Part shown: positions 30,001 to 33,000 of the stretch, piece after piece
How the letters are laid out: the number at the start of each line of letters is the position of its first letter
How positions within the stretch are numbered: the first letter of the stretch is position 1
Virus record (IMG/VR): IMGVR_UViG_2721755660_000001
Source: a virus
Lineage: Duplodnaviria; Heunggongvirae; Uroviricota; Caudoviricetes
Length of the DNA: 64,000 bases
Strand: one strand, 5' to 3'
Position numbers: made by a program

Positions 30001-33000
30001 CTCCGTCCCAGTGGGTGGCGATAGGTGTGCTGGGGAGTCTGCTGTTTGGCCTGCTGACGTACCTGACTAACCTGTATTTCAAAATCAGAGAGGACCGGCG
30101 TAAGGCGGCGCGGGGAGAGTAGACGATGAACCATGAAGAAATGAATCAGCGCATAAGTTGCCTGGAAAATGAAATCACTGAACTGAATAAAAAACTGTCG
30201 GTGCTGATGGTTTCTGAAGATGAAAAAAAACGCCGCGATGAGCAGGAAGCAGCGTTTTACGATGATTGCATCAAAATTGCTCGCAGGACCTTTGCGAAGA
30301 TTTTGCAGGAAAAGTTTTTACCGACCGCATTGTCAGAAAAGTACTCCATTACAGTTAAAAGTGCCGGAGAGGAAGGCAATAAACGTTATTTTATTGCGTC
30401 TGCACCGGATAAAGACCAGGAATGGGGGGATAATCGGCCATCTTTTATTGTGACAAGCGATGACTGGAATATCACGATCCGTGAAGATGGAAAAGTAACA
30501 CCAGCATCGCACCAGCACAGTGAGGCGCTCATTGAATTTGCCATTGATTACCTGAAGAACAATAAAAAGCAGGGACTAATGAAGCGCATTGGTCGTTGCA
30601 TGGGATATCTGCAGGTAGCTGCTGAGATTGAAGCGCTGGCCAGTGGTGCGGACAAGGATGCAGTTGTGCGGGAGGCTCTTCTTCGTGATTTTGATAATCC
30701 GCCCTTTAAAAAAGTGCCGGCTTACTGGTTTCATCCAGGACTGACTTATCTTAAAGGACGTATATAAGCTGGCTCGTTATCTGTTGCCGGATAATCGACG
30801 GAAGATGCGTTCTTTTTGTGATTTGGCGTAATGATGATCCCACTCACATTCAAGGTAGTTTAATTCTTCGTTTAACCAGTCATTTATATTGTCTTTCAGA
30901 CGTAGAAGCATGGCTGGTGTTAATATTCTGGACATAATGTCGAGAGTTGGTGGTGTGAGGTGTCCATACGGCTCAGCCTGAATGGATTTTACTGCTTCGT
31001 GGTTTTGCTGAATGAGTTTAAGGAATGCTGATTTAAATTGTTCATTCATGGCCTGCATGCAGGCGGTATATTTATGTTCATCGTTATACATTGCTAAATC
31101 CTCGACGGGAATTGTCAGATATATTTCAGCCATCAGGTAAAACACCAGTGCCCACCACTGGCAGGCTGAAGACTTAACATATCCAGGGATTCGGAACCGA
31201 TAAATCCTGATAAATATCCATGAACACCAAAATCAAATACGGTCTGTCGGCTGCCGTTCTGGCGCTGATTGCCGCAGGTGCGCCTGCGCCTGAAATCCTC
31301 GACCAGTTTCTGGATGAAAAGGAAGGTAACCACACCACGGCATACCGTGATGGTGTGGGTATCTGGACCATCTGCCGTGGAGCCACCCGGGTGGATGGTA
31401 AGCCTGTGATTCCTGGCATGAAGCTGTCGAAGGAAAAATGCGACCGGGTTAACGCTATCGAACGGGATAAGGCGCTGGCATGGGTGGCGAAGAACATCAG
31501 AGTGCCACTGACTGAACCCCAGAAAGCGGGTATTGCGTCATTCTGTCCTTACAACATTGGCCCCGGTAAGTGTTTCCCGTCGACGTTTTATAAACGAATT
31601 AATGCAGGTGATCGAAAAGGTGCCTGCGAAGCGATTCGCTGGTGGATTAAGGACGGTGGCAGAGACTGCCGTATCCGCTCAAATAATTGCTACGGTCAGG
31701 TATCCCGGCGAGATCAGGAAAGTGCGCTGGCGTGCTGGGGAATTGACAGATAAGCAGAATATTTTGCTGAAAAATGACATTGGCCAACGCGGGCGGATAA
31801 CACGAAATCCTGCGAACTGGCAAAACCTAAGTGAATAAAAGTAAAAACCCCGGTTGTTGGCAGCAAGCGGGGTTTGGTGTTTTCTGACCTTGAATAAGGC
31901 AAGGGAGAAATTATGGGTAGGGAGGTACTTTCCCTGTGAGGAAGTATAAAAGATTCTTTCTGAGGTTGTCCATTATGAAAGGCATTGAAGTGGAGAGCCA
32001 GTCTGGATTTAACAAGAGCGGCAGCTTTTGCCATTCGTATTGTGGCCATTGCTGTTCTGGTCTGGGCAATCCGTTGGTGGTGATATGAACCGTGTTCTGT
32101 GCGTGGTCATCATTGTCCTGCTGGTGGCCTGTGGTGCGCTTAGTCTGGGGCTGAATCATTACCGTGTTCACGCCATCATCTACAAAGAGCAGCGCGATAA
32201 AAAAGCCAGTGAGCTGGAGCTGGCGAACGCGACAATTACTGATATGCAGATACGCCAGCGTGATGTCGCTGCACTTGATGCCAGATACTCGAGGGAATTA
32301 GCCGATGCGAGAGCTGAAAATGAAACTCTGCGTGCTGATGTTGCCGCTGGTCGTAAGCGCCTGCGGATCAACGCCACCTGCTCCGGTACCGTGCGTGAAG
32401 CCACCGGCACCTCCGGCGTGGATAATGCAACCAGGCCCCGACTGGCAGACACCGCTGAACGGGATTATTTCATCCTCAGAGAACGGTTGATGACAATGCA
32501 GAAGCAGCTGGAAGGGGCACAGGAATATATCCGCACTCAGTGCCTGAATTAACAGAGCCAGCTTAATCGCTGGCTTTTTCATATCTGAATTTCATCGCGC
32601 ATCTCACGCGCATATCACATCCCCGAGCCTTTCAGAAAGTTGAGCCTGAGAACTGCCGTATATGGTGGCGACCATCTCGGGGCGGCTTTTCTGTGAGACA
32701 GGCTCAATTTTCTGAAAGGTAAGACGCTATGAACTATCTGACGATTGTTAACGGTATTGATTTCCGCGATCTTGTTTTTGTGACAGGCAACGAGCCGGTG
32801 ACGGATACCCGAAAGGTTGCCGTAGCATTTGGCAAAGAACACAAAGATGTATTGCGGAAAACAAGAGCCGTTGTTCAACAATGCTCAAAAGAATTTGCAG
32901 AGCGCAATTTTGCGCTTTGCTATGAAAACAATGAGTTACAGAACGGTAAACCCCAGCCCATATATCGAATGACAAAAGACGGTTGGACGATGTTGGTATT

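Follow-up and report, generated by a model that had tools for sequence, protein, structure and literature searches.

The prophage represented by IMG/VR virus record IMGVR_UViG_2721755660_000001 carries, between its pinholin gene S and its signal-arrest-release (SAR) endolysin gene R, two small convergent genes, here termed A and B, which form an accessory cassette, so far uncharacterised, at a locus already known to vary, and are neither an odd insertion nor a new mechanism. The 64,000-nucleotide (nt) stretch analysed (the window) is the late region of an Escherichia coli lambdoid prophage resembling Shiga toxin (Stx) phages, and its positions 30100–31220 match the sequence of E. coli strain 08-00022, among others, at 100% identity. 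Gene A (30126–30767, plus strand, 213 amino acids) and gene B (30777–31091, minus strand, 104 amino acids) lie tail-to-tail with 9 nt between their stop codons, in agreement with a first-pass annotation of this DNA that had placed two convergent open reading frames (ORFs) between the genes for a pinholin and a SAR endolysin. We tentatively favour, at a little short of an even chance, the explanation that the pair is a dispensable, moron-type accessory cassette in a variable pinholin–SAR endolysin slot, that its expression is phase-switched, and that B acts on A.

An accessory slot in the lambdoid late region and a YdfR-family gene following S are already familiar. Three features have apparently not been described previously: in this phage group the S–R slot is hardly ever empty, YdfR is a fragment of a larger modular protein, and one YdfR-family C-domain is accompanied across Escherichia and Salmonella by a specific antisense gene. 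Phage release from E. coli lambdoid prophages, Stx-type ones included, is governed by the lysis region, on which the release of toxin from Stx phages also depends. The A–B pair offers a concrete and cheap genetic handle on the function of these widespread, unstudied late-region genes.

Occupancy and composition of the S–R interval

Occupancy was assessed in the 80 IMG/VR loci that encode a holin with 94% or more identity to that of the window. An R21-type endolysin gene lies downstream of the holin in 59 of them, and 58 of these 59 carry a gene between S and R (interval of 358–1316 nt), the two lysis genes being adjacent in the remaining one. The first-pass annotation had taken S and R to be normally adjacent and an insertion within the lysis cassette to be unusual; neither view can be maintained, since an intervening gene is the rule in this phage group and Stx phage records are alike in this respect. 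Most often (17 loci) the interval measures 399 nt and contains nothing but a DUF1327 (YdfR-like) gene. A minus-strand gene lies just upstream of R in 25 of the 59 loci and belongs to one of five classes, with products of 104 (B), 86–110, 87–91, 90 and 116/233 amino acids, the classes other than B being seen in loci L003, L005/L006, L024, L025/L042/L063 and L038/L039. The five classes are mutually unrelated, remote homology between B and the others having been rejected (hhalign probability <2% between classes). Each class goes with one particular C-terminal continuation of the plus-strand gene, whose 3′ end it often overlaps, and the classes share a hairpin plus ~55 nt up to the start of R, except that the 90-amino-acid class lacks the hairpin and most of this stretch. 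This arrangement resembles a cargo slot whose occupants have an upstream region in common, and the S–R junction as a whole is a routinely filled, highly mosaic one.

The left border of this interval is S (29907–30122, plus strand), an S21-type class II (pin)holin gene that matches Pfam family PF04971 (Phage_holin_2_1, E 3.3e-32) as well as PHROG holin families and carries the M-Y-Q-M dual-start motif. The right border is R (31220–31753, plus strand), whose product is an R21-type SAR endolysin (PF00959, Phage_lysozyme, E 2.9e-24) with an E-x8-D-x5-T motif at residue 35 and an N-terminus rich in Gly/Ala. Between the same borders, Stx2 phage 86 carries gp05, a 'YdfR family protein', and gp06; Stx2_12E129 carries genes for 213 and 104 amino acids, PhiR5_1 carries genes for 211 and 86 amino acids, and Stx1 and Stx2c phages carry DUF1327 only. 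The A–B pair is already present in the phage 86 record (AB255436) as orf5/orf6, and its annotation is 'hypothetical' wherever it occurs.

Both genes are lower in guanine-plus-cytosine (GC) content than the lysis genes, as the first-pass annotation had observed (A 44.2% and B 40.0%, against S 55.1%, R 53.6%, Rz 54.5% and 49.6% for the window). The 1020-nt stretch that covers the pair has 43.0% GC and falls at the 9th percentile among all windows of equal size, so that the drop is real, though not extreme, and fits acquired cargo. Deviating composition (40–44% against 54–55% GC) is found together with presence/absence polymorphism, in the form of variable S–R content, two properties of morons. 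The possibility raised earlier, that homologous phages would show ordinary genes of uniform GC, is borne out in one half: they are ordinary accessory genes there, while their low GC persists.

Cargo is not confined to the S–R interval. A related Salmonella prophage has HicA/HicB between Q and the A–B pair, and other related prophages have a Tad2-like gene after Rz or a PemK toxin gene after Q (such cargo was seen in loci L093, L107–L109 and L111–L112), which confirms that the region around the lysis genes is a general cargo zone. Four E. coli prophages with a B-only slot (L101–L104) carry a 263-amino-acid gene upstream of the holin, at the position equivalent to that of stx, whose product has Enterotoxin_a/Scabin-like ADP-ribosyltransferase domains.

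Families and architectures of A and B

Both A and B are real genes under purifying selection and not chance ORFs. Measured against the alleles of Stx2 phages 86 and Stx2_12E129, which show 78–88% DNA identity, the ratio of nonsynonymous to synonymous substitution rates (dN/dS, omega) is 0.30 for A and 0.27–0.47 for B, in each case the lowest of the six frames with the exception of the mirror frame that shares third positions. Both ORFs stay open, with their lengths preserved, in these alleles. Constraint is uneven along the two proteins: the tail is the most constrained part of A (dN/dS 0.19), and the N-terminal 65 amino acids are the most divergent part of B (omega ~0.5–0.6, against 0.17–0.32 at the C-terminus). 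Diversifying selection was considered and rejected, as omega exceeds 1 in no segment.

The product of A matches phrog_1085 ('unknown function'; E 2.1e-101, profile positions 117–296 of 296) and is 60–87% identical over amino acids 4–213 to proteins named 'YdfR family'. It is predicted to be soluble and cytoplasmic (isoelectric point 6.2), with no transmembrane segment detected (maximum 19-residue Kyte–Doolittle hydropathy 0.76). Three parts can be distinguished, an N-terminal coiled coil (amino acids 1 to ~60), a beta-rich middle (~100–125) and a conserved helical tail (~149–213), and the earlier description of A as a coiled-coil protein accordingly applies to the first ~60 residues and not to the rest. 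The tail bears the motif GRCMGYLQVAAEIE...PPFKK..W..PG.TYLKGRI, and the residues that are invariant across genera (GRCM, LQ.AAEIE, PFK, W, PG and YLK) concentrate in it.

The 189 homologues recovered for A are E. coli proteins, which occur in three architectures. The first combines DUF1327, coiled coil, middle and tail in proteins of 287, 296 and 333 amino acids, the 296-amino-acid form being the commonest; the second joins DUF1327 directly to middle and tail (268 amino acids); and the third, to which A of the window belongs, consists of coiled coil, middle and tail (185–221 amino acids). Salmonella homologues likewise include long (313–321 amino acids) and short (185 amino acids) forms, and the E. 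coli 296-amino-acid and Salmonella 321-amino-acid forms align nearly end to end (E 2e-26). DUF1327 (PF07041) is found in the homologues of 268–333 amino acids (E 4e-45 for phage 86 gp05) and gave no Pfam match in A of the window; no Pfam model matches the C-domain of A. In the K-12 Qin prophage, ydfR lies between essQ and rrrQ. Judged by these domain arrangements, A is a DUF1327-less version of an old, modular, multi-domain 'YdfR family' late protein, and K-12 YdfR is the N-domain alone of this larger late protein. Our literature search found nothing on A or B, the sole related experimental work being that on K-12 YdfR, residues 1–72 of which bind the catalytic half of RNase E; the protein co-purifies RNA and needs no partner (PMC13232886).

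The longest ORF of B (30777–31145) would give 122 amino acids from a GTG codon. An ATG at 31091 has a GAGGA Shine–Dalgarno sequence 7 nt upstream (31099–31103), and homologues in E. coli, Salmonella and metagenomes, of 104–105 amino acids, begin at the same Met; B was therefore taken as 30777–31091. The 122-codon ORF of the first-pass annotation exists as described, and the protein is more likely to have 104 amino acids. B matches phrog_1853 ('unknown function', E 8.4e-47), and a full HMMER search of 1.8 billion cluster representatives recovered only 18 relatives, with identities down to 26–47%, the named ones among them coming from Escherichia and Salmonella. The motifs NE..KS, EPYG, LTP, W.NEE, DC.WD and QK.R are conserved. 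AlphaFold2 (AF2) confidently predicts a five-helix bundle with a predicted local distance difference test score (pLDDT) of 85 and a predicted template modelling score (pTM) of 0.79; the protein is predicted to be soluble, and no transmembrane segment was detected (maximum 19-residue Kyte–Doolittle hydropathy 0.94). B-type DNA was detected at 128 places in 94 of 5426 complete E. coli genomes, among them that of the O104:H4 outbreak strain.

The absence of recognisable motifs, noted earlier from sequence alone, was upheld by searches of Pfam, NCBIfam and PADLOC, which returned nothing significant for A, B and their counterparts; in PADLOC-DB v2 (5027 models) only chance-level scores were obtained (E 0.015–0.018) for A, B and their equivalents in phage 86 and PhiR5_1. 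No PDB sequence was matched below E 0.03 in profile searches. For B, neither sequence nor structure searches yielded a relative of known function.

Pairing, expression and competing explanations

Within E. coli, A and B are adjacent and their linkage is therefore uninformative. Gene contexts of B homologues, obtained by exact-protein look-ups, extend the comparison beyond this species: distant B homologues (38–45% identity) are again convergent with, and adjoining, homologues of the A C-domain (39–43%). A Salmonella B homologue (P0135, 43%) has an A homologue of 42% identity as its partner (E 3e-29), and a metagenome B homologue (P0138, 38%) has one of 39% (E 4e-20), the 3′ ends of these distant pairs being −33 to +19 nt apart. 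The distant pairs sit upstream of the holin gene: Salmonella loci read Q...[A><B]-holin-lysozyme-Rz, A being short or long and the holin belonging to the same family as that of the window, and in metagenome contigs the neighbours of the pair are an HNH gene and a holin gene from another family. The two genes look foreign, and they form a recurring pair, convergent A–B homologues being present again in Salmonella and metagenome prophages.

A conserved palindrome (31143–31170, minus strand) precedes B. On the B strand it reads TCAGCCyGCCAGTG-loop-CACTGGyG, followed in the window allele by UUUU, and it recurs ~50 nt upstream of the B start codon in loci from E. coli, Salmonella and metagenomes that have no other similarity in their flanks. 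It is also present upstream of the unrelated minus-strand genes of the same slot, save the 90-amino-acid class, and was observed in the window plus loci L001–L003, L005, L006, L024, L025, L042, L063, L093 and L094. The distant convergent recurrence of the genes, together with this travelling hairpin, shows that A and B form a cassette. A terminator scan scored the palindrome as terminator-like on the minus strand, its stem is invariant and so offers no covariation evidence, the 5′ untranslated region of B has a fold z-score of −1.6, and a search of 30126–31219 against Rfam found no family. The hairpin may be a 5′ messenger RNA (mRNA) stabiliser, an attenuator or a recombination joint, and could equally well function as a terminator or as an operator in the DNA. 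In its core it is similar to intrinsic terminators (GCCGCCAGTG...CACTGGCGGC plus a T-run) found elsewhere in these phages.

Upstream of the hairpin lies a candidate sigma-70 promoter for B (31176–31203, minus strand), with a −35 element TTATCG (31203–31198), a 16-nt spacer and a −10 element TATGTT (31181–31176) located 6 nt upstream of the conserved CAGCC. The Salmonella counterpart in L093 has TTGATT, a 16-nt spacer and TATAAG, 5 nt upstream of CAGCC, and a TATnnT/G hexamer stands 2–9 nt upstream of CAGCC in three unrelated contexts, the metagenome locus, at 2 nt, being the weaker match. From the position of this candidate, the B mRNA would start at or near the hairpin and carry it at its 5′ end. 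Any transcript encoding B has to run leftward from a start within R or in the interval that separates B from R. The terminator scan found no terminator-like site between the stop codons of A and B, and none after B, the only hairpin being that on its 5′ side; late and leftward transcripts must therefore overlap as antisense.

A, for its part, is positioned for translation from the late transcript along with S. It starts 3 nt past the S stop codon, and its Shine–Dalgarno sequence (GGAG, 30114–30117, 8 nt upstream) lies inside the 3′ end of S. We posit that A would be translated from the Q-dependent late transcript by means of this ribosome-binding site and hence be made only in lytic growth, together with the lysis proteins. 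B would be transcribed from a putative promoter of its own, situated within the ~75 conserved nt that precede R; its transcript would pass through the 5′ hairpin and most probably be made in the lysogen. The two transcription units would collide and yield mutually antisense RNA, making expression of the genes mutually exclusive, with B on in the lysogen and A on upon induction. B would then probably act as a lysogen-phase partner or antagonist of the conserved C-domain of A, and the role of the cassette would be to tune some host process of the late phase, while neither killing cells nor being essential for lysis. Genes antisense to prophage lytic genes have been described as characteristic accessory loci that have their own promoters and are transcribed in lysogens (PMC7067206), and on this precedent, the candidate promoter and the layout of the two transcripts we favour a phase-switched cassette.

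Several observations weigh against this explanation. A consensus promoter scan upstream of B passed nothing, the candidate being too weak. The AF2 model of A, built from a 30-sequence alignment, has a pLDDT of 47 and is unusable, so that the fold of A cannot be assigned, and Foldseek searches with the B fold against PDB and BFVD gave only generic helical matches, all with E>1. Intact A genes of 185, 217, 296, 329 and 333 amino acids occur without B and with R directly after them, and intact B occurs next to a 65-amino-acid remnant of A or without any A; neither gene thus requires the other, although the same loci speak for the dispensability of the cassette. In locus L089, A is 97% identical to that of the window and B just 73%, with a breakpoint inside B whose C-terminus is of the window type and whose N-terminus comes from another allele. 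A and B alleles therefore recombine apart, which speaks against tight cognate specificity. Finally, linkage of adjacent or overlapping genes accounts for part of the co-occurrence of A and B in E. coli.

The absence of one partner can be secondary. In three loci with a 185-amino-acid A (L030, L047 and L079), the last ~20 nt of B (...GNR*) are fused to the sequence upstream of R at a short GATAA repeat, and this remnant is a deletion scar which shows that B was lost. In the O104:H4 strain 2011C-3493 (L106; NC_018658.1, 2169854–2171866), a non-Stx lambdoid prophage carries a frameshifted A of the phage 86 type, annotated as a pseudogene with a missing C-terminus although its tail is still in frame, beside an intact B of 104 amino acids.

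These same observations lend some weight to the view that A and B are functionally independent passengers paired through physical linkage only, A being a YdfR-family late protein that works on its own (perhaps in RNA metabolism or at the envelope) and B an unrelated moron in a reverse-gene slot. Such independence would be consistent with the use of the slot upstream of R by five unrelated classes of minus-strand gene, with the frequency of A-only and B-only loci, with the separate recombination of A and B alleles, and with the partner-free RNase E binding and RNA co-purification of K-12 YdfR, which is DUF1327 alone (PMC13232886). However, the pair stays adjacent and convergent at ~40% identity and at another position relative to the lysis genes, for which linkage alone is no easy explanation, and A of the window lacks DUF1327, the domain that contacts RNase E. 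We therefore regard independence as possible though doubtful.

The first-pass annotation had also suggested defence, toxin–antitoxin or lysis-modulating functions. A toxin–antitoxin, abortive-infection or other anti-phage defence pair would suit a small low-GC two-gene module in a prophage cargo region, with HicAB, PemK and Tad2-like genes in the neighbouring cargo of related loci, and those lineages in which a frameshifted or truncated A accompanies an intact B recall orphan antitoxins. Yet neither gene matches any of the 5027 PADLOC models or any toxin or antitoxin family of Pfam or NCBIfam, and the genes are convergent and do not form an autoregulated co-directional operon. Full-length A with all modules (217 and 333 amino acids) is kept without B, and the frequency of A-only and B-only loci argues against an addictive pair. 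As a gene of the late operon, moreover, A would not be expressed in the lysogen, when defence is needed. A pair of this kind is consequently disfavoured, and we consider it unlikely.

A role of A, with or without B, in the timing of lysis, as a cytoplasmic antiholin or holin partner or as a modulator of SAR endolysin release, draws on its constant proximity to the holin (directly downstream in E. coli, one to two genes upstream in Salmonella and metagenomes) and on its use of the ribosome-binding site at the end of S, by which R is deprived of a Shine–Dalgarno sequence. But neither A nor B has a transmembrane segment and A has no holin-like feature; many functional-looking cassettes lack the A C-domain and contain DUF1327 only or nothing; and since the region between Q and the lysis genes is the general lambdoid cargo site, proximity to the holin is expected of any moron. 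There is, in our estimation, little chance that A is a timing regulator. As separate observations on translation, R has no recognisable Shine–Dalgarno sequence at 31200–31222, and in L087, the sole locus in which S adjoins R, R takes the GGAG at the end of S that serves A in the window; occupancy of the slot may thus alter the S:R translation ratio.

Pore-forming colicin operons consist of an effector gene, a small gene on the opposite strand and a lysis gene. The order of A, B and R mirrors this arrangement, and A could by analogy be an effector freed at phage lysis, with B an immunity protein made constitutively in the lysogen; that the N-part of A is conserved while its middle varies by allele, and that divergence of B is greatest in its N-terminal 65 amino acids (omega ~0.5–0.6), would agree with such a system. 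On the other hand, A has 213 amino acids and no receptor-binding or translocation domain, B lacks the membrane segments of the immunity proteins of pore formers, alleles of A and B are shuffled, omega is above 1 in no segment, and A-only lysogens exist. Gene orientation is the only feature of the colicin arrangement that fits, and a colicin-like pair is very improbable.

A bolder form of the phase-switched cassette, to which we assign a small chance, would make it a new module in which A and B are mutual antagonists and convergent transcription enforces the switch, the slot itself serving as an expression platform for lysogen cargo. The platform would consist of the promoter and hairpin shared upstream of R, which would serve lysogen-phase cargo in Stx-type phages. 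Possible roles of such a module include kin exclusion or effector–immunity at lysis, or regulation of late-phase host RNA decay.

Surrounding genes and comparison with known systems

Upstream of S, the window carries a cluster of three tRNA genes (Met-CAT/Ile2-type, Arg-TCG and Arg-TCT; 28331–28580), followed by a TerB-family gene (28754–29185) and, between this gene and the holin, the small RNA STnc100 (29412–29610, plus strand; 148.7 bits against a gathering score of 47). The TerB-family gene occupies the stx-equivalent position behind the tRNA cluster (window 28331–29346) and is followed by an ORF of 54 amino acids, annotated as DUF3927 in an identical RefSeq genome. An Esr41-like match that stays below threshold (39 bits against a gathering score of 102) lies just upstream of S (29676–29766, minus strand). 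Downstream of R, Rz/Rz1 (32085–32552) is followed by a gene for a Rha-type regulator.

Among the closest known systems is the YdfR/DUF1327 family (PF07041), whose members, such as K-12 Qin ydfR and phage 86 gp05, occupy the same slot, after an S21-type holin and before a SAR endolysin. Members of 268–333 amino acids have the C-domain, and also the coiled coil, in common with A of the window (60–87% identity), whereas K-12 YdfR consists of the RNase E-binding DUF1327 only (PMC13232886), the very domain that A lacks. The layout S-A-B-R is shared with phage 86 (orf5/orf6, that is gp05/gp06) and with Stx2_12E129. These two phages carry different alleles: B is 67–68% identical to its counterparts there, and A is 84% identical to that of Stx2_12E129 over its whole length and 81% identical to that of phage 86 in the C-domain, a DUF1327 N-domain in gp05 replacing the coiled-coil start of A.

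Toxin–antitoxin modules of type II and colicin–immunity pairs likewise comprise two small adjacent genes, one of which potentially neutralises the other. In contrast to these, A and B show no homology to such systems, are not arranged as an operon and include no membrane immunity protein, and each gene is found intact without the other; no type II toxin–antitoxin fold or domain was recognised in either by Pfam, NCBIfam or PADLOC, nor in the generic matches of the B fold. Another parallel is provided by antisense prophage morons such as bor of lambda and STMMW_20121 of Salmonella prophage ST64B, small genes on the strand opposite a late operon, with deviating GC, variable presence and presumably a promoter of their own (PMC7067206). 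Unlike those morons, B has a conserved late gene on the sense strand as its partner, and both genes are transferred jointly from one phage lineage to another.

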